From the IMG/VR virus record IMGVR_UViG_3300001687_000020: 45,879 bases of DNA; one strand, given 5' to 3'. The stretch comes from a virus. Its lineage: Duplodnaviria > Heunggongvirae > Uroviricota > Caudoviricetes. Position 1 is the first letter of the stretch, and the number at the start of each line of letters is the position of its first letter. Both the position numbers and the translations under genes were made by a program. The notes under the pieces were generated by a model. It saw only the letters and a program-made list of their open reading frames with translations, did no database searches and had not been told where the DNA came from. Below, piece by piece: positions 2,963 through 14,117 of this stretch.

Positions 2963-4906
2963 TTATAAAATAAAGAAATTCAAATTAATCTTTTCAACTA
3001 ATTTCATTGGTTGAAGCTCAATATTGACATGGAACTGTTTGGTTTTAAGTTCATAGTCGGTTGCCCCAACTTCAACACCATAAGAATACAAACCTCTTCT
3101 TCGCTTAATGTCTTCTAAGAATAAAGTAATGTCTGAAGCAACTCTATCCCAAGTTTCAGCATCGTTTAACTCAAAAATAAAATATCTACAATATTGTTCC
3201 AATGCCTTTTTAACATAAAGGATCATTCTAACAACATTAAGGTCTTGTAAACTACTTGGTTTGGACTGGGAAGTTAGTTGACCCCAGAATACATAACCCT
3301 GAGCGAACTTAACAATTGGGTTAAGTTGCTTCAAATACATATCATCTCGGTCACTTAGAGTTGGGTTATATCGAAGTTCTTTAATTCCATCCAAAGTTCC
3401 TCCGGGGAATCCTACAAAACCTGCCCATACTTCTCTCACTGAATCATTTCTTGGTAATAAATAAGAAGCATGCCAAGTCGGACTAACCCACATATCCTGA
3501 CCTGTGAAGTTATCATAAACCTTATTAAAGTTGCAAAAGAGTGACATATAATAATTATTATATGTATGAGAATTTGTCCTATCCGTTAATTCGTTTGCAA
3601 CCGTGGAGTTATCACTATTATCAATTATTCCTATACAATCCCTTCTTGTGGTACATAGGGTATTAATAGCGGTTTTAACATCGGTGGGATATCCTGCGTC
3701 CCACACAACATTAAAGTAATAACTTTCAGTGTCTAAAACTGACTCTTCGGTGACTGAAGTCATAGGATTTGTCAATAACCCAGTGTATGCTTGAGCAAGA
3801 ATTTGGGTAGCAACTGTGGTATTTAAATTTCCTCCCACTACAAGAGTTCCAACTGAACCCTTAGAAAGTGGAGTTGCATCAGATAACGCAGTTGCCATAT
3901 TGACATAAGATTTTCTAACTTGATAAGTGATTTCCCCGCCTGAGTCAAAATTAGTAGTACTACCAATCCAACTTTGAGTTGCTCCAGTCAAGTTTTTGGA
4001 ACTAAAAACATTAATAGTTCCATTCGTCACACCGGAAGATGCTCCCAACCAACCCCAAAGTTCATTTCCTCGCTGATCCTTTGCTATTACTACATAATTA
4101 GCAGTTCCTGTCTCGGGGTTTGTTTGCCATTGACTAAAATCCTGCTTATTATCACTGATGGTGGCAGAGCCGGCTGTTTCGATTACATCAATATCACCTT
4201 GATTTTTGTCGTAAACTCGGGTACATAAATTGTAGCCAGCAGTTCCCTGCTCTGCTCGTAAAACTGAGGAATAGTTTTCTAAAATCTCATTAATGTAAAT
4301 TGAAGCACCGGCTAAGTCAACTGCAGTTGGGTCAAATGAGATTTCAAAACTTTCAATAATTTGGTCAGTCTCATCAGATTGTCTTTCATAAATATCCAAA
4401 ATGTAAACACCATAATACATTGGATTAGATTGCTGAGTCAACTTAACACTTATTCCATTATAATAATCCCCTCGACCAATAGGATATAAACAACAAATAG
4501 GATAAGTAGTTCCATCTTGAGCCATATTAGTTTCAAGAACTGAAAGACTTGTAGCAGAGGAAATATAACTAAAACTTAAAGTTGTAGTACTATCGCTTTC
4601 ATTCGCGTCAATCCTAATATTGGAATAAGTGGCGTTTGAGGGTAATGCTCTACAACAATAAAGTGATCCTGATTCACCCAAAAAGTTATAAGCAATATAT
4701 GGACCAAGACCATAGTTTTTGGTATAATCAGTTATATCTGGCTCGCCAAACTCAGAAATATAATCCGACCTAGAACTTTTCTTTACTAATTGGTTATCCC
4801 TACCTTTTACACTAAGGAATGAGATAAGTCCCGTAGTTGCCGGAACTGCCTGGACATATGTACTTAGGTCAATAATCTTAGTATATACTCCCGGACTTAT
4901 AGCCAT
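2963..4906 (-). CDS. Tail sheath protein
   Basis: 647 aa; N-terminal SPGVYTKIIDLS and C-terminal sheath domain (RRDCIGIID, LNPIVKF, WGQLT, LQDLNVVRM, FELND, IELQPMKLVEKINLNF). Confidence 0.95.
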   Translation of the reverse strand: MAISPGVYTKIIDLSTYVQAVPATTGLISFLSVKGRDNQLVKKSSRSDYISEFGEPDITDYTKNYGLGPYIAYNFLGESGSLYCCRALPSNATYSNIRIDANESDSTTTLSFSYISSATSLSVLETNMAQDGTTYPICCLYPIGRGDYYNGISVKLTQQSNPMYYGVYILDIYERQSDETDQIIESFEISFDPTAVDLAGASIYINEILENYSSVLRAEQGTAGYNLCTRVYDKNQGDIDVIETAGSATISDNKQDFSQWQTNPETGTANYVVIAKDQRGNELWGWLGASSGVTNGTINVFSSKNLTGATQSWIGSTTNFDSGGEITYQVRKSYVNMATALSDATPLSKGSVGTLVVGGNLNTTVATQILAQAYTGLLTNPMTSVTEESVLDTESYYFNVVWDAGYPTDVKTAINTLCTTRRDCIGIIDNSDNSTVANELTDRTNSHTYNNYYMSLFCNFNKVYDNFTGQDMWVSPTWHASYLLPRNDSVREVWAGFVGFPGGTLDGIKELRYNPTLSDRDDMYLKQLNPIVKFAQGYVFWGQLTSQSKPSSLQDLNVVRMILYVKKALEQYCRYFIFELNDAETWDRVASDITLFLEDIKRRRGLYSYGVEVGATDYELKTKQFHVNIELQPMKLVEKINLNFFIL

Positions 4907-5566: not shown

Positions 5567-6265
5567 TTACACGTAAATATACCATGTAAACACGAGACTT
5601 CTCAAAGAAGTCTTTTCAATGGTTGAAAAAGTTACTCTAGCAAACAAAGTGAAAATCCCACTTGCTCCACCCGCAGAACTAGCATTTATAAATAACCCCG
5701 CTTCATTCACATCATTATTTCCTGGGAAATTACATTCATCGTTTGCTATTGTGGTAGTTACCTTGATTATAAGATACCTATTATTGTTACTTGGATCTTG
5801 TTGATAAGTAACTGAGTCAAAAGCATGTTTAAACCAATAATCTGTTCCTCCCTTATTATGCCAATCAGCATAGATAGTTGAAGTTGAATCAGTTGAAATA
5901 GGAATTTCATCTGCTAACTTAGTATTACTATTTGAGGGTGGAGCAGGAGTTAATGGATCAACTGGACATCCTCCCTGACCTAGTCCGAACCAATAAATTG
6001 CTTCGTTGGCCGCCGAAGTTGTGTCTACATTATTAATATTAAAAATTCTTTCAGCAACCCACTCTCGACCTGCGTAAACTACTAAGTTATTAGTTTGCTC
6101 TACTAAAGTTTTATTCCCTTCGCTATCTACTGAGTGAATTTGGACCATATTTTGAGGTTTCTTAGATGGACCATTGGGAGTCCTAAAACTGCCAACTGAA
6201 TCACCTATACATTTACTGTAGTAATCGTTGACAGTTATTCTTATTTCTTCAACTTTATGTTCCAT
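5567..6265 (-). CDS. Baseplate/tail-collar-fibre-like protein
   Basis: 232 aa; NLVVYAGRE, FGLGQGG, NEAGLF, LFARVTFSTIEKT..LVFTWYI pattern of collar-fibre (DUF3751-like) N-terminal domains. Confidence 0.7.
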   Translation of the reverse strand: MEHKVEEIRITVNDYYSKCIGDSVGSFRTPNGPSKKPQNMVQIHSVDSEGNKTLVEQTNNLVVYAGREWVAERIFNINNVDTTSAANEAIYWFGLGQGGCPVDPLTPAPPSNSNTKLADEIPISTDSTSTIYADWHNKGGTDYWFKHAFDSVTYQQDPSNNNRYLIIKVTTTIANDECNFPGNNDVNEAGLFINASSAGGASGIFTLFARVTFSTIEKTSLRSLVFTWYIYV

Positions 6266-6282
6266 TCTCTATCTCCTTTGTA

Positions 6283-6558
6283 TTACTCAGTAAATATAAT
6301 ATAGTCATTCTGAGCGCATCCAGCAGCGGTGCATTTTAGAATTATAACGTCTGCGTCCATCTCTACGGCAGTTAAATCTATTTTATACCACCCATGACTA
6401 ATTTCGGTTGCTGGAGTATTAACACAATTAACAAATGCCCCACCATCTTGTGAAATTTGAACCGTTGCTACAACTCCAGTTTCTGGAGTATTGAAATCTG
6501 TAGCATCTACCATTTTTATAGGGAAATTACTAAATGCTACATTCTTTGTAAAAGGCAT
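6283..6558 (-). CDS. Small beta-sandwich protein (EIxxGWY...GCAQND family)
   Basis: 91 aa; QISQDGGAF, EISHGWYKIDL, GCAQNDY; paralogous to 7022-7363 and the C-terminus of 7381-8253; RBS GAGGAGG. Confidence 0.8.
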   Translation of the reverse strand: MPFTKNVAFSNFPIKMVDATDFNTPETGVVATVQISQDGGAFVNCVNTPATEISHGWYKIDLTAVEMDADVIILKCTAAGCAQNDYIIFTE

Positions 6559-6583
6559 CTTTAAACCTCCTCATTTTATAGTC

Positions 6584-6596
6584 CAATAATTTGTTC
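6584..6596 (-). promoter_or_regulatory. Putative late promoter GAACA-AATTAT-TG
   Basis: Plus strand caataatttgttc, upstream of the RBS of 6283-6558. Confidence 0.7.
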
Positions 6597-6607
6597 AGAT
6601 TTAAAAA

Positions 6608-7011
6608 AGGTAGATATTAGATAGGATTTTTACTAACTAACAAATAGTTTCCATGGTCGATCCTTGATCATTACATAAGAATGCCCGAGTGTTAGTAAGA
6701 ACTATATATTCTTCACCATTTGAAAGTTTACACCCAATCCTTACCACTGGGACAAAACATTCGTTTTCAACACCCTTAACTTTCTCTACCTCTTCATCAA
6801 TTACTATTAAATTAGCTTCATCTGACTCAGAAAAAGTTCCATCCTCTAACTTATAAGTACCATCTTTCACATTATAAAGAGTATCTCCAGTAACTAGCCT
6901 TTCTATATTATCAATAAACCACCAATCTCTAAACTGATTAATACCTTTGATTTTTAGTAACATGTGTTTTCTACCTTCCTTCCTATCTACCTAGCTATCT
7001 AATATCTACCT
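6608..7011. repeat. Perfect 17-bp inverted repeat (6608-6624 / 6995-7011) flanking the 6637-6963 gene
   Basis: aggtagatattagatag vs ctatctaatatctacct; on the minus strand the downstream arm ends in T6 (6603-6608). Confidence 0.95.
6637..6963 (-). CDS. Accessory hypothetical protein (FLCNDQGSTME C-terminal motif)
   Basis: 108 aa; C-terminal AFLCNDQGSTMETI resembles the YLxNDxGKTIE motif of small non-structural phage proteins. Confidence 0.8.
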   Translation of the reverse strand: MLLKIKGINQFRDWWFIDNIERLVTGDTLYNVKDGTYKLEDGTFSESDEANLIVIDEEVEKVKGVENECFVPVVRIGCKLSNGEEYIVLTNTRAFLCNDQGSTMETIC

Positions 7012-7021
7012 CACATATATT

Positions 7022-7363
7022 TTAGGGTGCTCGTAACTGAGCATCTATAAAAACATAGTCATTCTGAGCACATCCAGAAGCAGTAAATTTAAGTATTAAA
7101 ACACTATTAATAAGATCATCTATAGCGATTAAAATTTTATACCAACCATTTCCGATTTCTCTAACCCTAGATTCAGGAACTTGGAAAGCACTTCCGTTTT
7201 TCGATATTTGACAAGAAACACTCTTTCCTGGAGCGGGAGAGGATATATCAGTACTTAAAACCATTTTAAATACTATTTCAACTTTTGGAGTTTCTGTTCC
7301 TATGGGAATTCTATCTCTTTCCCTTTTCCTCCAATTAATCATTTTTGTGCCAATTATAGCCAA
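7022..7363 (-). CDS. Small beta-sandwich protein (EIxxGWY...GCAQND family)
   Basis: 113 aa; QISKNGSAF, EIGNGWYKIL, GCAQNDY. Confidence 0.75.
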   Translation of the reverse strand: MAIIGTKMINWRKRERDRIPIGTETPKVEIVFKMVLSTDISSPAPGKSVSCQISKNGSAFQVPESRVREIGNGWYKILIAIDDLINSVLILKFTASGCAQNDYVFIDAQLRAP

Positions 7364-7380
7364 TGTAATATCCCTCCCCT

Positions 7381-8253
7381 TTATGCTCGGAGATATCCGT
7401 CAATATATACAAAGTCACATTGTAGACATCCAGTAGAGTCAAACGAAATAATAATTGTGTGATTCTCAAATACCGCTGGAGGTAATAAAGTAGAATACCA
7501 ACCTTGACCAATTTCACTACTAGTAATTGGTTGGTATACAAATGGTCCTCCATCTGTGGAGATTAAACAAGTAGCATCCACTCCCAACATTGGGCTTGAA
7601 TAATCGTAGGAAGAAACCATCTTATACATTACTCTAATGTCAAGTATTTCAGTAAGGTCAACTCTACATAAATCGCATCCAAAAGGTGCATCAAAAAGCC
7701 ATGGATCTATAATCCCAGTAGTAGAGTCGATTACTGGACCATCGAAATTAGTGAATCCTCCAGATTGCCATTCCCATCCATCAATAGAAACCTTTTGAGA
7801 TGAACTTTCAACTGTTTCGTCTCCCCCCGGATGTTCATTATAATAATCGTCAATATTTACAGCAAACCCAATATCAATCCAATTAGTATTATCATGGACA
7901 TCTAAATAGTCATGAGCTTCTTCATACCAAGTAGATAATATAAAATAATCATCATATCGAATAGAATCTTGTAATGGATTATTTTGATCTATTGTATTGT
8001 CAAAAGAATATATTCTTACTCTCTTTGGTTTCCACCAATTAAGAACATCTTCAGGAATATTTGCTTCAAACACTAATCCAATTAGAGGATAAGTTGAGGG
8101 ATCTATATTCAACATATATTGGTATAAGTCTTTGAAGAAGTGCTTAAGTAGAGTTTTCTCAGTCCCAAGTTGAAAAGCATGATCAATCTCTGCTTTTAAC
8201 TCAGGATTTAATATCTCTAATACATGACCCGCACTTGTAGTATCAAGTAACAT
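7381..8253 (-). CDS. Structural hypothetical protein with C-terminal EIxxGWY domain
   Basis: 290 aa; C-terminal LISTDGGPF, EIGQGWYSTL, GCLQCDF paralogous to the two flanking genes. Confidence 0.75.
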   Translation of the reverse strand: MLLDTTSAGHVLEILNPELKAEIDHAFQLGTEKTLLKHFFKDLYQYMLNIDPSTYPLIGLVFEANIPEDVLNWWKPKRVRIYSFDNTIDQNNPLQDSIRYDDYFILSTWYEEAHDYLDVHDNTNWIDIGFAVNIDDYYNEHPGGDETVESSSQKVSIDGWEWQSGGFTNFDGPVIDSTTGIIDPWLFDAPFGCDLCRVDLTEILDIRVMYKMVSSYDYSSPMLGVDATCLISTDGGPFVYQPITSSEIGQGWYSTLLPPAVFENHTIIISFDSTGCLQCDFVYIDGYLRA

Positions 8254-8291
8254 ATTTCTTTTTCCTATCTCTAATTGACTTTATCATCCTT

Positions 8292-9155
8292 TTAAGACGC
8301 TTGAAGAATCCTAGAATATGTGTAAATGATAGCGCAATACAACTCTAGTAGAGAAACACTCATATCAACAATTGACACAAAAATGTCTTTAACTGGAATA
8401 GTTCCATGCCTATACCAGGGATAAAATTGATCCTCAACTTTTCTTCTTAATATAGCAATAGTTATTTCTAATTCTTGTAAATCCATTCTTGCCCTTACAC
8501 TGATATATGGAGTTGGGCTAGGAAGAGCAATATCATTACTAGCAATCAAAGCATTTATTTCTGCTTGTGTTTGAAACCAATGAGGATCTCCACTAGTCAT
8601 TTCCTCAAAAGTAACTGTTTTCTCAGGAACTAAGGATTCACTTATTCTTCCTCTTTGGGTACTTTTACCTCTGAAAACTAAAGTTCCTGACTCATTTCTT
8701 TCCAAATAATATTCTAGAATATCTGCGTCAGTTACATCATGGTATTCTAAAACCGAAATTAAAGCTTCTGGGGTTCCTTTTATTTTATATAGGTTAACTA
8801 AATCCAAAAGAAAAGCTACTTTAGTCCTAGTTGATAATAGATTTTCTGGATATGGATAACCAAAACTTCTAATAAACTCTTCAACATGAGTTTGTGGTAA
8901 TGAGAATGCTTCACTAGCATTCTTTTGAGTAGTTACTATAGTTCTAAATGAAGAATACCAATCAATTATAAACTTTCTTAATCTTTTAAAGTCATCGCTA
9001 GCAAAACTAACTTGATCAATAGCGGTAGTGAACCATTTAGTTGCTAATTCTTTATCACCAATAGCGGTATTCCTTAAATTCTCATCTAAAGTCGTGTCAG
9101 CAGTTGGATCTTTTAAAAAATCTAATATCTTCCAGAAATCACCTAATGTAAACAT
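8292..9155 (-). CDS. Baseplate wedge-like protein
   Basis: 287 aa; IRSFGYPY...LVNLYKIKGTPEALISVL resembles the P2 gpI/T4 gp7-type wedge motif YxxKGT. Confidence 0.65.
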   Translation of the reverse strand: MFTLGDFWKILDFLKDPTADTTLDENLRNTAIGDKELATKWFTTAIDQVSFASDDFKRLRKFIIDWYSSFRTIVTTQKNASEAFSLPQTHVEEFIRSFGYPYPENLLSTRTKVAFLLDLVNLYKIKGTPEALISVLEYHDVTDADILEYYLERNESGTLVFRGKSTQRGRISESLVPEKTVTFEEMTSGDPHWFQTQAEINALIASNDIALPSPTPYISVRARMDLQELEITIAILRRKVEDQFYPWYRHGTIPVKDIFVSIVDMSVSLLELYCAIIYTYSRILQAS

Positions 9156-9160
9156 AGTCT

Positions 9161-9754
9161 CTATTTCCTTAGCCTATGAGTATAAACATTTTCTTCGTTG
9201 AAAGAATACTTTATCTCATAATCAAATCTATTTGGATTCAAAACAAACCTTGGAATTATAAAACTACCTAAATGATAAAGTAAACATTTAGTAGTATCTA
9301 AATATCTTATTTTATCATCAACATATATCATGACCCAAGCATGCTTATCAGCTAATACCACTCTTGCCTCAAACTCATACTTTCTCAATATAGAGCAAAG
9401 TAGTATTGCTTGGTCTTCGCAGTCTCCGGTTCCTTTCTTTAAAGTTACTACTGGGTCTTGCCAAATGTCATCTACTTTTTGACCTTCTTCATAGTCTTTT
9501 TTATAACCAATATTTAAAAAAACTGACAAAGCAATCCAATATGGATGTTTAATGAATACATCATATTTAATCTTTTTAAATATTAAAGTAGTCCATCTTA
9601 CAGTTTGAATTTTTCCTATTCCTACTTCTGCTTTACAATATTTTTTAGTTATAAGTTTTCTATTTTCTATATCTTCTCTATCAATCTCTTTCCAATATAG
9701 AGGATTAAATATATTTATGCTCTTAAAAAATGTTTTTACTTTAGTTAGATCCAT
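9161..9754 (-). CDS. Transglutaminase-like cysteine protease
   Basis: 197 aa; GTGDCEDQAILLCSIL, HAWV, YLDTT give a Cys-His-Asp triad. Confidence 0.85.
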   Translation of the reverse strand: MDLTKVKTFFKSINIFNPLYWKEIDREDIENRKLITKKYCKAEVGIGKIQTVRWTTLIFKKIKYDVFIKHPYWIALSVFLNIGYKKDYEEGQKVDDIWQDPVVTLKKGTGDCEDQAILLCSILRKYEFEARVVLADKHAWVMIYVDDKIRYLDTTKCLLYHLGSFIIPRFVLNPNRFDYEIKYSFNEENVYTHRLRK

Positions 9755-9768
9755 TTTTTTAATCCTCC

Positions 9769-9781
9769 TATTTTTTTGTTC
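9769..9781 (-). promoter_or_regulatory. Putative late promoter GAACA-AAAAAA-TA
   Basis: Plus strand tatttttttgttc; predicted +1 A is directly followed by the GGAGG RBS of 9161-9754. Confidence 0.75.
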
Positions 9782-9799
9782 CGAATTGTAACTAAATAT

Positions 9800-9844
9800 A
9801 AAAAATAAGGTAGGCTTGAACTATTGTATGCTCAAACCTACCTT
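9800..9844 (-). terminator. Intrinsic terminator
   Basis: Minus strand AAGGTAGGTTTGAG-CATACAATAG-TTCAAGCCTACCTT-A-TTTTTT; 14-bp stem whose two wobbles are valid only on the minus strand. Confidence 0.85.
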
Positions 9845-9896
9845 TCCCCCCAACCATAAGCCGGACACTAGGAGGTTTATGAGACGCCTGTAGACC

Positions 9897-10496
9897 TTAA
9901 GAGGTCCCTGAGACTTCTTTAAACATTTCTTCAACTACATAACACTCAAACATATTAGTAAGAACTGAGGTTGAATCAGAAATTAAGTCAGTATTGTTAT
10001 ACTTAGAATAATCTCCGGTTAACTTAAAGTCTAAATAAATGTAAATTAATTTTGATAATTTAGTTGTGAGATTATTGTATACTATCGACGAAATATCAGT
10101 ACTCCCAGTTCTTTTATATTGAAGTAATTTATTAATAAGGGTTAGGTCGTCTTGAGTGAGTTGAAAAAGGTTGGTTCTACAATTCTGTCCATCACATACA
10201 TAGTATTGAGTTGTAGAAGGATAAACTATACTTCTATCTCTACAAGTTTTATCCCATGATAGTCTACTTGATATACTTCTAAATTTATACCTATAATGAG
10301 GATACTCATATCCAAAATCAGGAACTGAAGTTGAGTCATTTGCTTCACAAAATAAAACTTCAATAAAACAAGTATGGTCTATTTCAGTTGGATCAATCGG
10401 ATCTATAAACCTAGTATCCTCGATATTCAAAACTCTATTTTCTAAAAATCTAGAAAAGTTATACAATAACTGTGGGCTTATTATTTTATTTGCCAT
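9897..10496 (-). CDS. Hypothetical protein (probably structural)
   Basis: 199-aa ORF in operon orientation; no recognisable motif. Confidence 0.75.
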   Translation of the reverse strand: MANKIISPQLLYNFSRFLENRVLNIEDTRFIDPIDPTEIDHTCFIEVLFCEANDSTSVPDFGYEYPHYRYKFRSISSRLSWDKTCRDRSIVYPSTTQYYVCDGQNCRTNLFQLTQDDLTLINKLLQYKRTGSTDISSIVYNNLTTKLSKLIYIYLDFKLTGDYSKYNNTDLISDSTSVLTNMFECYVVEEMFKEVSGTS

Positions 10497-10503
10497 AGTG
10501 TTT

Positions 10504-10986
10504 TTACTCTGCTATCTCATTAAATATCCAACCCGCTAAAAGGGCAGTAGTAATTCCCAATGTAAAACTAAATCCTGTTTTGTATGAGTTCCACTTTAAT
10601 GCAGTTAAATACTTCTTTTGACTCTTATCTAACTCCTCTCTGTATAAAGAGATGTCTTCTTTCAGCAAATCATTATTACTGATATATAGTTTGATCCTTT
10701 CATCTTTAGATTCTAAAAGTTCTTGGTTAAATATATGAACCTTATTAAGGTTTTCTAATTGCTTGGTTTTTAATACATTAACTTCACGTAAAGTCTCTAT
10801 TTCTTCCAATACTTTTTTCCACTCTTCCACTTCTAATCCTATTAGTTCTTTATTACATGTCTGTCCAGGTTCAAGAAATACTGGATTAAGATTTAATTCT
10901 TCTCCTCTAGCACAAAAAGCAAGGAATAAGATAAGGAATATTACTATGAGTCCTACTATAAGTAAATCCTTTCTAAATTCACTCAT
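10504..10986 (-). CDS. Signal-peptide, coiled-coil, C-terminal TM protein (spanin-like)
   Basis: 160 aa; hydrophobic N-terminus, coiled coil, C-terminal FTLGITTALLAGWIF; abuts 10986-11342. Confidence 0.55.
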   Translation of the reverse strand: MSEFRKDLLIVGLIVIFLILFLAFCARGEELNLNPVFLEPGQTCNKELIGLEVEEWKKVLEEIETLREVNVLKTKQLENLNKVHIFNQELLESKDERIKLYISNNDLLKEDISLYREELDKSQKKYLTALKWNSYKTGFSFTLGITTALLAGWIFNEIAE

Positions 10987-11342
10987 TATAAACTCCTTAT
11001 TTTATCTATTACATCAGATGCTTTAGAAGTATTTATCTTAACTTTTTCTTTAACTGAAGCAATTTCTTTATCTAATTTCTTATTCTCCTGGATTAAAGTA
11101 GATATTTCATTCCCTTTCCAATCATCCATTTTTTCTAATTCTTTAATCTTATCAGAGTTTTGTTTCCTTTTCTCCTCTTTCACTTTCAGTTTTTCGTCTA
11201 GTTCTTTCTTCTGTAAATTTAATTTGGTTTTCTCTAGAAGGTAATGACCCCTTCCTTTCAATATTATTATTCCTAGTATCGCCAGGGCTATTGTCCCTAG
11301 AAGTATAAAGAATGCCTTTAGGTTCCTGAATATGGATTTCAT
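10986..11342 (-). CDS. N-terminal TM plus coiled-coil protein (i-spanin/Rz-like)
   Basis: 118 aa; AFFILLGTIALAILGIIIL then Lys/Glu-rich coiled coil. Confidence 0.6.
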   Translation of the reverse strand: MKSIFRNLKAFFILLGTIALAILGIIILKGRGHYLLEKTKLNLQKKELDEKLKVKEEKRKQNSDKIKELEKMDDWKGNEISTLIQENKKLDKEIASVKEKVKINTSKASDVIDKIRSL

Positions 11343-11523
11343 TTTCTTGTCTCCTCTTTCTTTCTTCTAACTCCTTATTAGTAACTGGAAACTCTGGAAC
11401 ATGACCAAAAGCGTTAACTAATTCCTGTCTTCTTTGAGATTCTGAGTATTCTTTTATTCCCCTTTCTGGTAATTCGGAGTATGCCCTATTCGTCCATTCT
11501 TTCGGCGTTTTCGGTGTTGCCAT
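11152..11523 (-). CDS. Hypothetical protein overlapping the Rz-like gene
   Basis: 123 aa; RBS GAGG; fills gap 11343-11485 and overlaps the next gene by 191 nt in another frame. Confidence 0.5.
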   Translation of the reverse strand: MATPKTPKEWTNRAYSELPERGIKEYSESQRRQELVNAFGHVPEFPVTNKELEERKRRQENEIHIQEPKGILYTSRDNSPGDTRNNNIERKGSLPSRENQIKFTEERTRRKTESERGEKETKL

Positions 11524-11791
11524 TTTTCTTTTCCTCTATTAAACTAGCTATCTGAAACACACTTCTTGAAAATAAAATAACTAAAATACCAGAAGTTAAA
11601 ATCGTAGTCCACTGGGTTCCGGTAATTTTTCCAGCGACTAAAAGTTTAGTGGAAATATAACTAATAGCAGCCAAAACCCAAAGTTTTACTGAGATTAATG
11701 TTCTAAGTAATTTAGCTAACCATAAAGCATAAAATTCTTTACTAAAAGCATTATGCTCACAATTTATCTCCATCGTCTTCTTCGCTCCCAA
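11486..11791 (-). CDS. Holin-like two-TM protein
   Basis: Hydrophobic LISVKLWVLAAISYI and WTTILTSGILVILF segments with charged C-terminus. Confidence 0.55.
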   Translation of the reverse strand: MGAKKTMEINCEHNAFSKEFYALWLAKLLRTLISVKLWVLAAISYISTKLLVAGKITGTQWTTILTSGILVILFSRSVFQIASLIEEKKNGNTENAERMDE

Positions 11792-12224
11792 ATAACTTAA
11801 ATAGTCCTACAAACAAAGTTCCTTTCTCAAGGAATGGTTCATAGTCCAATACTATTAGCCTTACAAATTCATAGTCTTCGTGATTAAAAACTAAGCAATG
11901 TTGCCCATTACGAATCTCTGTTTTTAATCCATTAATAACTTTATCAGCTTGAATGATATCTTTATACCCTCGATATCCTCTATAAGTCGATAAAGCCATT
12001 TTAATTAAAGACGAAGTAGTATGAGGTTCTTCTTCTCCTGACTTAGAGTAAACTCTAGTAGTAACTCTTGGATTAACTATTATGTCAGGAATATAATATA
12101 CTCTTTCTTCATTAGAAATTCTTTTCTTATTTGGTTTAATAACTTTCGGTTGAATAACTTTGTCTTGCTTTGGATCCATTAAGTGTGTTTCTTGTTCTTC
12201 GATAGTTTCATTAAACTTATCCAT
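11757..12224 (-). CDS. Hypothetical protein
   Basis: 155 aa; RBS GAGG; preceded by late-promoter motif. Confidence 0.75.
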   Translation of the reverse strand: MDKFNETIEEQETHLMDPKQDKVIQPKVIKPNKKRISNEERVYYIPDIIVNPRVTTRVYSKSGEEEPHTTSSLIKMALSTYRGYRGYKDIIQADKVINGLKTEIRNGQHCLVFNHEDYEFVRLIVLDYEPFLEKGTLFVGLFKLFGSEEDDGDKL

Positions 12225-12243
12225 TTCATTGACCTCTTTCTTA

Positions 12244-12256
12244 TAATAGTTTGTTC
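12244..12256 (-). promoter_or_regulatory. Putative late promoter GAACA-AACTAT-TA
   Basis: Plus strand taatagtttgttc, upstream of the RBS of 11757-12224. Confidence 0.75.
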
Positions 12257-12299
12257 TGTCAAAAAATTCTACTCGTCACTCTTCTTTCCAACTATTAGG

Positions 12300-12579
12300 T
12301 TCTCCCTTTGTAGGGGAAAAATACATAGATTTTAATAAGTCTAAGAAAAATCTTAATCTACTTTAAAAGAGACTTTAACTAAAACAGATTTTTCTCAGAA
12401 CCGTTCTAGAAGTTCATAGTAAATTTATTTCATATCAGTATAGGGCATTTCTTATAGAAGAATATCACATAGAACTGTTCTGAAAACTTAATCAGTCTTA
12501 AAATATTACTTTTGATAAGTTAAAGATTTTCAGTTCGGTTCTGAACATTTTATAAGAAATTGCCCCTACAAAGGGAGAA
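12300..12579. other. Non-coding palindromic element, candidate ncRNA / MITE-like element / origin
   Basis: 17-bp perfect terminal IR (12300-12316 / 12563-12579), internal AGAAC-n-GTTCT palindromes, long internal hairpin 12441-12568; no ORF of 60 aa or more. Confidence 0.6.
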
Positions 12580-12592
12580 AAAAATTTAATCC

Positions 12593-12766
12593 TTACTTAG
12601 AACTCTTCTCGATCTTATGACCAAGACCCACAATACCCAAAGCTGCTCCAAGCATAAGAAGTGCATTACCAACTTCAACTCTACCAAAAAACTCTAAGAC
12701 TGCAGCAATACCAATAATTCCTGCCGCAGTCCAAGTTTTCCAACCACCCATAATGTCTTTAAGCAT
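12593..12766 (-). CDS. Small two-TM protein (holin-like), 57 aa, absent from ORF track
   Basis: RBS AGGAGG; MLKDIMGGWKTWTAAGIIGIAAVLEFFGRVEVGNALLMLGAALGIVGLGHKIEKSSK. Confidence 0.85.
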   Translation of the reverse strand: MLKDIMGGWKTWTAAGIIGIAAVLEFFGRVEVGNALLMLGAALGIVGLGHKIEKSSK

Positions 12767-12775
12767 TCTATCCTC

Positions 12776-13588
12776 CTAGTTTAAACAAGTCCCACAATTC
12801 GAGCAAAAATTAGACCCAGAAGAAGAAGACCTGCCACAAGTAGAGCAAGTCAACTTTTCCCTAGTTAAAAGAGGCTTTTGAATAGGGACTTGTTCTTCGG
12901 TTATGCCTCTTAACTTAAGAGTTATAACATGAGAAATTCCTAACCCTCCAATTGTAGTAGAATCAAACTTTTGATTACTATGAGATCCTTTAACTGTAAT
13001 ACCTTCATCTTTTTGGATATCTCTAATGTCAGCCTGCATATTTAAATTCTCAGCTTGATTACAACATTTAGTAGAGTTATAAAAAGAATGAACTCCTCTT
13101 GATAAATTTTCAGTAGTACTACTCAAATAACTCCAACCAATACCTGGTTCAAATTTACCAGAATAAGTCGATGTTCCGCAAGGAAAATCACTTTTTATAG
13201 TAAAAGGATACCCTGTATAATACTGATAGTGTTCCTCAAACTGAAATTCTACTCTGACTATTCCATCGTCAATTCTATCGCCTCGGTAATTAGCAATCTC
13301 TCTAGTTTTCTGAATAAACTTAAACTTATTGCTTACGTCACTTCCTTTGAGAAATCCCTCTAAAAAGAGAGTATTTTCCCTTCCTGGACCACTTCCAGGA
13401 ATAACAAGTCGGGAGCGATCTAAGACATCCTGACCATCAATAGAAACTTTTACTATCACCCTCCTTGAGTCCATGTTTTTTAAACCAATTGAATATTCTG
13501 ATCCAAATGGTAAAGAAACATAGCCATCTTTTTCTCTCAGAGTTTGACCATTACATTGAATTGTGACTATAAAATTACTAGTAAACAT
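12776..13588 (-). CDS. Conserved-type phage protein with C-terminal double zinc ribbon
   Basis: 270 aa; LPFGSEYSI.LKN...VSIDGQDV N-domain and CSTCG...FCSNCGT C-terminus; RBS AAGGAGG. Confidence 0.85.
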   Translation of the reverse strand: MFTSNFIVTIQCNGQTLREKDGYVSLPFGSEYSIGLKNMDSRRVIVKVSIDGQDVLDRSRLVIPGSGPGRENTLFLEGFLKGSDVSNKFKFIQKTREIANYRGDRIDDGIVRVEFQFEEHYQYYTGYPFTIKSDFPCGTSTYSGKFEPGIGWSYLSSTTENLSRGVHSFYNSTKCCNQAENLNMQADIRDIQKDEGITVKGSHSNQKFDSTTIGGLGISHVITLKLRGITEEQVPIQKPLLTREKLTCSTCGRSSSSGSNFCSNCGTCLN

Positions 13589-13676
13589 TACTTCCTCCTT
13601 TTAACAGGTTACTGACTAGAACCTCTCAATTCTTAAAGTCAGTTGGAAAAGGTTAGAGTGACGAGTAGAAACTATA

Positions 13677-14117
13677 TTAATTATCTCTATATCTTCTTAG
13701 AGAGTGAATATCGGATTTTATCGAGGATATTTCTTTTTCTATATTAGCAAAAGTAGTTTGAAGACCATTTCTTACACTCCCTTGTAATTCTGTAATTTTT
13801 TCTTCTAATCTCTTAAAACCTTCTTCCTGCCTAGTATGAATAATATCTATAGATCTAGTCAACTCGGATCTTAAGTTTGCTAAGACTAATTCAGTTTCTT
13901 TCTGACGAGCAAACTTAATGTCACAATCTTTTCTTCTGTCATTGATTTCTTCTTGCATGGCGGATATCTTCTCCTTGCATGATGTTTTACATTTCTCTAT
14001 TTCGTCGAGACTTTCTTTTTTCATGCCTCTAATATCCCTCCATATAAACGCTAAAATACCTACAAAAAGTAGGCCAAATATTGTTTCTACTGCCGTAGGA
14101 GTCATATATTCCTCCAA
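13677..14117 (-). CDS. Single-TM coiled-coil protein (holin/XhlA-like)
   Basis: 146 aa; IFGLLFVGILAFIW then long coiled coil. Confidence 0.6.
   Translation of the reverse strand: MEEYMTPTAVETIFGLLFVGILAFIWRDIRGMKKESLDEIEKCKTSCKEKISAMQEEINDRRKDCDIKFARQKETELVLANLRSELTRSIDIIHTRQEEGFKRLEEKITELQGSVRNGLQTTFANIEKEISSIKSDIHSLRRYRDN

Follow-up and report, generated by a model that had tools for sequence, protein, structure and literature searches.

What is the biological function of a long inverted repeat whose two arms lie on either side of one small gene? This question is raised by a cassette that measures 404 nt from arm to arm in the viral DNA analyzed here, a stretch of 45,879 nucleotides that we refer to as the window. 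The window derives from a large uncultivated myovirus and contains a tail sheath gene (2963–4906), a G+C content of ~33% and strong Shine-Dalgarno sites. No DNA or protein relative of the region was found among the GenBank phages. The cassette and the ~100-residue protein family that it encodes in large phages are previously undescribed. From the pattern of conservation among distant relatives, we consider it probable that the repeat constitutes the ends of a self-contained accessory cassette whose leader and trailer pair as RNA and close the ends of the message.

An inverted repeat encloses a small gene in the structural module

The cassette site belongs to a minus-strand structural module, in which genes for proteins of 287, 290 and 106 residues are followed in the order of transcription by the 108-residue gene of the cassette, by genes for 91, 232 and 170 residues and by the sheath gene. 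The upstream neighbor (7022–7342, minus strand) encodes 106 residues from ATG 7342, or 113 residues from TTG 7363, and is a paralogue of the downstream neighbor (6283–6558, minus strand), which encodes 91 residues with the same GWY...C(A/L)Q(N/C)D domain. This C-terminal domain of ~70 residues, with the motifs GWY and C(A/L)Q(N/C)D, is common to the 290-, 106- and 91-residue proteins (7381–8253, 7022–7363 and 6283–6558, all on the minus strand) and has no Pfam or PHROG match in any of the three. An HMM of the flanking-paralogue domain finds matches only in the lineage of the window among the metagenome loci retrieved with the 232-residue neighbor. The same GWY domain also forms the end of a 522-residue protein on an unrelated phage contig (L089, 3702–5270).

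The repeat search places the arms at 6608–6624 and 6995–7011. They are complementary at 17 of 17 nucleotides and 370 nt apart, and the arm 17-mer occurs at only these two sites of the window even when up to three mismatches are allowed. The inverted repeat is confirmed and is far beyond chance. In the mRNA sense, the 5′ arm of the closing helix (6995–7011, minus strand; AGGTAGATATTAGATAG) begins 10 nt past the stop codon of the 106-residue gene. It opens a purine-rich leader (6964–7011, minus strand) that contains three GGTAGA copies (TCTACC at 6970, 6986 and 7005 on the plus strand), five AGRYAG-type motifs and the ribosome-binding site GGAAGGAAGG. The 108-residue gene (6637–6963, minus strand) follows, and the 3′ arm (6608–6624, minus strand; CTATCTAATATCTACCT) begins 12 nt past its stop codon. 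A run of five T residues (6603–6607, minus strand; six counting the last base of the arm), which has no partner in the leader, comes directly past the 3′ arm. Next in the transcript are an AACA-N6-TG motif (6584–6595, minus strand) and the ribosome-binding site of the 91-residue gene.

The perfect 17-bp repeat and the three GGTAGA copies had been noticed in a first-pass annotation of this DNA, and both are borne out. The same is true of a second complementarity of 9 nt, between 6981–6989 (TCCTATCTA) and 6618–6626 (TAGATAGGA), although this alternative pairing beside the ribosome-binding site was not found to be general across the family. When leader and trailer are folded together as RNA (6585–7035, minus strand), as that annotation had advised, the end-to-end stem is present in both the minimum free energy and the centroid structures, and neither arm folds locally. 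The total folding energy of this segment is ordinary (z −0.41).

The enclosed gene encodes a small all-beta protein

The open reading frame between the arms is a real gene, as the first-pass annotation had assumed, given its ~20 full-length distant homologues, their conserved N- and C-terminal motifs and a confident AlphaFold model. An exhaustive HMMER search retrieved 24 distant matches, of which ~20 are full-length at 27–38% identity; across the family, identity to the 108-residue protein of the window is 22–38%. The family alignment spans ~100 residues with a median pairwise identity of 30%. Its middle part is variable, and its N- and C-terminal parts are conserved as the motifs MILKIKR..DWWxLDxIRKIS and GxEFxVxFDTxAYLCNDxGKTIEKIV. 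The AlphaFold model of the 108-residue protein is all-beta (pLDDT 85.7).

The family has no Pfam or PHROG model. The protein of the window has no Pfam match at threshold and no PHROG match at an E value of 0.01, and the 20 aligned members give only scattered single-member matches to Pfam and PHROGs (best E 0.013 and 0.00035, respectively), none of which is common to more than two members. A tblastn search of 50,697 GenBank phage records with the 108-residue protein yielded no match at an E value of 0.01, and the ESM Atlas returned nothing for it by shape or by sequence. Foldseek found nothing significant in the PDB (best E 0.017, a tandem Tudor structure with a TM score of 0.23), and a fold search of BFVD likewise found nothing significant (best E 0.033). 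VIA-align against 48,161 chains gave a best Z of 4.3, with many small barrels of the Sm, Hfq or SH3-like type at Z 3–4, under the noise level stated for the tool. The weak resemblance of the predicted model to an Sm/SH3-like barrel is below noise and is only a lead. At the nucleotide level, an Rfam search of 6000–14000 at E values up to 1 gave one chance miRNA match only.

The bracket is kept across the family by compensating changes

Is the inverted repeat a peculiarity of the window, or does it accompany the gene family? Family DNA was collected from IMG/VR contigs and a few metagenome-assembled genomes by scans with the family alignment, and two more members were added via contig look-ups; in all these loci, genes were modeled as simple ORF calls. 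The 100 nt that precede each start codon were searched for their best complementarity to the 60 nt that follow the stop codon. Because the identical procedure was run on other ORFs, the bias that arises from choosing the best of many alignments is controlled. The bracket is present in 17 of the 22 full-length members with DNA, as 10–17 exact nucleotides or as 12–20 nucleotides with one mismatch, whereas the longest complementarity among 230 other ORFs of the same loci is 9 nt. The leader arm of the bracketed members ends 11–50 nt before the start codon, the trailer arm begins 5–23 nt after the stop codon and the relatives of the window cassette measure 336–429 nt from arm to arm. Wherever the bracket is kept, it is the purine-rich arm that precedes the start codon.

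The arms are built from TAGAYAG-like units whose detail varies by member, and each trailer fits its own leader. Thus, the arms vary and stay complementary (AGGTAGATATTAGATAG, ATAGACAGACAGTAGGT, TTAGACAGGCAGC and TAGGCAGACAGG), and in GC-richer members the TAG stop codons are gone and exact complementarity is kept (CAGTCAGGCAGA and TAGGCAGACAGG). When whole cassettes are aligned by MAFFT with no fitting, RNAalifold predicts this stem alone, with a U-A to C-G exchange in four sequences. The end-to-end pairing put forward in the first-pass annotation gains support from comparison: rather than keeping the gene and losing the inverted repeat, most distant relatives keep both, with covarying arms. 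Gating of translation or termination, for which that annotation invoked the pairing, is a candidate role.

At least two copies of the motif are found in 18 of 22 family leaders versus 3 of 178 control leaders. The five members that have no trailer complement come from contigs of 46–58% G+C, and three of them still have the leader motif. An unrelated 66-residue gene on one contig (L107, 8003–8203) has a leader of seven TAGA repeats with no complement past its stop codon, so the (TAGA)n leader type is not wholly exclusive to the family.

The neighboring genes are unrelated between family members. The bracket persists in L110, where there is no nearby same-strand gene upstream, and in L114, where the downstream genes are on the opposite strand, which argues that it serves the cassette itself. 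Loop-out of the cassette RNA to restore translational coupling of the neighbors was also considered as a family-wide role and is rejected, given that L110 and L114 have no nearby co-directional neighbor.

The cassette is inserted between genes that are adjacent in relatives

The first-pass annotation had also read the repeat as a possible mark of an invertible or insertable unit. The latter part of this suggestion is supported by empty junctions in relatives of two lineages. Relatives with adjacent flanking genes, at ~55–73% protein identity, were found through the 232-residue neighbor. In one of them (L087), homologues of the 106-residue protein (56% identical) and of the 91-residue protein (73%) are encoded 33 nt apart, and the spacer contains no ORF and no repeat and keeps the GAACAAAT box before the ribosome-binding site. 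Gene maps of two further relatives have the identical 33-nt spacing, and a fourth relative, on a 20.7-kb contig, has a different 117-residue gene in the cassette slot. A metagenome scan with the 232-residue neighbor retrieved 80 loci at 33–49% identity, which do not show the cassette junction because the genes upstream are arranged differently.

In a second lineage of phages, the junction is empty in ~30 relatives, where the stop codon of one neighbor overlaps or adjoins the start codon of the other, and is filled by the cassette in three (L093, L095 and L096). The stop codon of the upstream gene in L095 is the first triplet of the arm. At the same junction, L122 has a different gene of 235 residues (ending at 3000), which is preceded at ~60 nt by CCTATCTAT, a sequence that resembles the 3′ arm, and also by the TAACAAGGAGAGGAATTA leader that follows the 3′ arm of L095. 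The arm-like segment of L122 looks like the leftover of a lost cassette.

A word-index protein search returned 99% identical copies only, all at the site of the window and with identical arms. Four near-identical copies (L001–L004) lie at the same site, and the contig of L005 ends 158 nt upstream of the match. The orientation is the same in all five near-identical copies, and thus the invertible part of the earlier suggestion finds no support. Each record has one cassette copy (five phage records, including a complete 268-kb genome). The copy in the 268-kb genome is a truncated remnant (L103, 3962–4117; the same in L102) that consists of the last 51 codons and the trailer arm and directly follows an ORF with an HxxEH (M16 peptidase-like) motif. 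No target-site duplication was seen at the window cassette; compared with the empty sites, 7–14 extra nucleotides lie outside the arms. Taken together, the sequence comparison indicates that the cassette has spread among large tailed phages and, in the window, is inserted between two paralogous genes of the structural module.

An RNA helix is a more probable explanation of the bracket than DNA ends

Does the bracket act as a helix in RNA or as a pair of ends in DNA? Five points favor an RNA helix over transposon ends. First, of the members with a single mismatch in the arms, seven have G·U on the mRNA strand and two have A·C, an excess that is not significant alone (one-sided p ~0.09). Second, of 13 members compared, 10 have a sense duplex of greater stability than the antisense one (Wilcoxon p 0.017), a difference that base composition could partly explain. 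Third, GC-richer members keep the pairing without the stop codons. Fourth, the cassette is present as one copy per record. Fifth, no identical copies were seen at other sites, and there is no target duplication and no transposase-like match. However, terminal inverted repeats that are read by one protein would covary too, and the shared TAGAYAG theme is not required by pure pairing and hence points to a sequence-specific reader, which may be a protein or the ribosome. The five members without a trailer complement and the ordinary total folding energy also count against the RNA-helix explanation.

If the arms are instead DNA ends, they could be the terminal inverted repeats of an ultra-small mobile element similar to the MPMEs of mycobacteriophages, with the 108-residue protein as a mobility factor that recognizes the TAGAYAG ends. 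The size and layout fit this explanation (404 bp with inverted repeats and one small ORF, compared with 439 bp for MPME1; PMC3029335). So do the presence and absence of the cassette between conserved neighbors in two lineages, the position of the arms at the outer limits of the inserted DNA, the arm motif common to the family and the diversity of genomic contexts. We nevertheless regard a mobile element as unlikely, given that each record has one copy and near-identical copies occur only at the same site, that extra nucleotides lie outside the arms with no target-site duplication and that the arms are perfect or G·U-tolerant, not loosely similar. In addition, neither fold nor family searches matched the protein to a nuclease or transposase, and the MPME ORFs are not detectable relatives of it in the tblastn search of the GenBank phage records described above.

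The arms could also be outward-facing copies of one functional motif, with the pairing as a by-product. Such a motif would be a binding site of the encoded protein or a three-frame stop block that ends incoming translation from either side. Indeed, (TAGA)n puts TAG in all three frames, the stop codon upstream of the L095 cassette coincides with the arm, the leader motif is kept even where the trailer complement is missing (L104 and L111) and the (TAGA)7 leader of the other gene in L107 has no complement at all. This reading is improbable, because the arms match base for base with odd deviations included, such as ATT in the arm of the window, and the GC-richer members lose the stop codons and keep exact complementarity (CAGTCAGGCAGA and TAGGCAGACAGG). 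Moreover, motif copies are more numerous in the leader than in the trailer, and the two ends are asymmetric.

A chance repeat, or a neutral and functionless leftover of an insertion event, would agree with a total folding energy that is no different from that of shuffled sequences. We consider this highly improbable in view of the 9-nt maximum in the 230 control ORFs and of a bracket retained in 17 of 22 relatives at a median pairwise identity of 30%, a divergence at which neutral sequence would long have been randomized. Finally, an invertible segment switched by a site-specific recombinase, for which the inverted repeats flanking a gene might speak, can be practically dismissed, given the single orientation of the five near-identical copies, the purine-rich arm upstream of the start codon in every bracketed member, the absence of a recombinase among the neighbors scanned and the fact that inversion would turn the gene antisense to its operon.

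The 3′ end of the message may be formed at the helix by different means

In the window, CTACCT of the stem is directly followed by TTTTT at 6603–6607, which resembles the stem and U-run of an intrinsic terminator. However, the short loop and the G+C-rich local hairpin of such terminators are absent, as the loop of 370 nt is far outside the known range and the stem has 5 G-C among its 17 pairs. A terminator scan did not call the stem of the window cassette. Past the 3′ arm, only the window (T5–6) and L101 (T6) have an unpaired T-run, and L114 has four T residues, which excludes termination as the family-wide role of the helix. The sole strong canonical terminator between 2000 and 15000 is located at 9807–9844 (minus strand) and consists of a 15-bp stem and a T-run; its stem begins with AAGGTAGG and ends with CCTACCTT, which resemble the outer ends of the cassette arms.

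Five members are located in or next to phage tRNA arrays (L107, 3956–4384; L101, 3740–4165; L158, 2554–2954; L098; and L106). A tRNA-Tyr gene starts 5 nt past the 3′ arm of L107, and a tRNA-like sequence that is cut by the contig end and was not called by ARAGORN starts 2 nt past that of L158. Because a T-run (L101 and the window) or the start of a tRNA (L107 and probably L158) directly follows, the 3′ end would be made right at the helix. The arrangement of these sequences suggests that no fewer than three members, with L158 as a probable fourth, form their 3′ end at the helix, and by more than one mechanism.

The motif past the T-run of the window fits the consensus of AR9 late promoters, A-ACA-N6-U-A/G (PMC5449584), and its predicted transcription start at 6584 is 25 nt ahead of the ATG of the 91-residue gene. 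On the minus strand of the window, GAACA-N6-T(A/G) sequences that start at 2407, 6596, 9781, 12256, 29387 and 44020 are intergenic, lie shortly ahead of ribosome-binding sites and fit the AR9 consensus (PMC5449584); nine further minus-strand matches lie inside genes. In the cassette leader, no AACA-N6-T(A/G) or sigma-70-like site was found. We also considered TAGAYAG as a general promoter of the phage and rejected it, given that only 10 scattered copies exist in the 45.9 kb.

Model of the cassette

On the basis of the complementarity, its conservation with compensating changes and the insertion polymorphism, how would the cassette operate? It comprises a purine-rich (UAGAYAG)n leader, a ribosome-binding site, the gene for an all-beta protein of ~100 residues and a trailer exactly complementary to part of the leader. 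We propose that leader and trailer pair on the transcript to form one long-range helix of 12–20 bp with the whole ORF in its loop. This helix would form in RNA and serve the message of the cassette itself: once the message is released from a longer transcript, the helix would define and protect both ends, and it may also set the accessibility of the leader to ribosomes. Release of the 3′ end would take place right past the helix, using whatever the context offers. In the window and L101, the U-run would complete a split-stem intrinsic terminator. In L107, formation of the 5′ end of the tRNA 5 nt past the arm may release the message, and the tRNA-like sequence 2 nt past the arm may do so in L158. 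The AR9-type late promoter motif of the window would then restart transcription for the downstream structural genes.

We tentatively extend this model to a broader possibility, which we hold with less confidence than the model itself, that large phages exchange "self-closing" cassettes. The two helix halves would travel with the gene and seal its message, and a defined and protected mRNA would thus result in transcription units of any kind, structural operons and tRNA arrays alike, with the 3′ end made via a U-run or tRNA processing. A possible reader of the (UAGAYAG)n leader is the small beta-barrel protein encoded behind it, and the segment at 12267–13670 of the window may represent a second example.

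This second cassette is defined by a perfect 16-nt inverted repeat (12267–12282 and 13655–13670) that is intergenic and brackets accessory genes. Its loop of ~1.4 kb contains a 270-residue zinc-ribbon gene, a 57-residue membrane gene and a non-coding stretch of 240 nt, which has a 20-nt inverted repeat of its own (inner pair 12300–12319 and 12560–12579). As in the first cassette, the 3′ arm is followed by a T6 run and an AACA-N6-T(A/G) motif, whereas the gene family and the arm sequence are unrelated.

If the helix works as proposed, a promoter-less accessory gene carries its own post-transcriptional insulation, which would account for the persistence of such genes once inserted into tightly coupled phage operons and tRNA arrays. 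The two halves would also provide a compact natural part of ~35 nt for defining mRNA ends in synthetic operons. Furthermore, the strict association of a cis element with this new family of small proteins offers a handle on the function of the protein, which might bind nucleic acid in its own leader.

Comparison with known systems

Which known systems does the cassette resemble? The closest described ones are the MPMEs, the PeSLs, morons and rRNA processing stems, each of which shares one aspect with the cassette and fails a defining feature. MPME1 and MPME2 are ultra-small mobile elements of mycobacteriophages, and MPME1, at 439 bp with the inverted repeats IR-L and IR-R, is found inserted in phage genomes (PMC3029335). 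The cassette is similar to them in its length of ~0.4 kb, its inverted repeats at both ends, its one small ORF of unknown function and its presence or absence between conserved genes. In contrast to the MPMEs, which occur as identical copies at several sites in near-identical phages, the cassette is present as one copy per genome with deep divergence. Its arms are perfect, covary and belong to the leader and trailer of the gene, and there is no detectable sequence relationship.

PeSLs are composite terminator/promoter cassettes of T4-like phages that form short regulatory borders of small accessory genes and go along with insertions, deletions and swaps (PMC2839356, PMC4122927). The 3′ border of the window cassette, a stem and a U-run followed by a promoter motif, has the same composition. 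However, PeSLs are local stem-loops in direct orientation that act through homologous recombination, whereas the repeats here are inverted, flank the gene as the two halves of one stem and accompany a single gene family.

Morons of tailed phages are accessory genes that relatives lack at a junction of two neighboring genes, and the cassette gene is likewise missing from relatives such as L087, where the flanking genes are 33 nt apart. The 3′ U-run of the cassette is only terminator-like. The cassette differs in that no promoter motif was found in its leader and in that the conserved complementarity of leader and trailer is not part of the moron concept.

In rRNA operons, the 16S and 23S rRNAs are each bracketed by long-range processing stems that are RNase III substrates and define the RNA ends. 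The cassette has the same architecture, with a predicted long-range helix made from both sides, maintained by compensating changes and enclosing the whole RNA in its loop. Unlike the rRNA stems, the putative helix of the cassette measures 12–20 bp, and its loop is a small protein-coding message.
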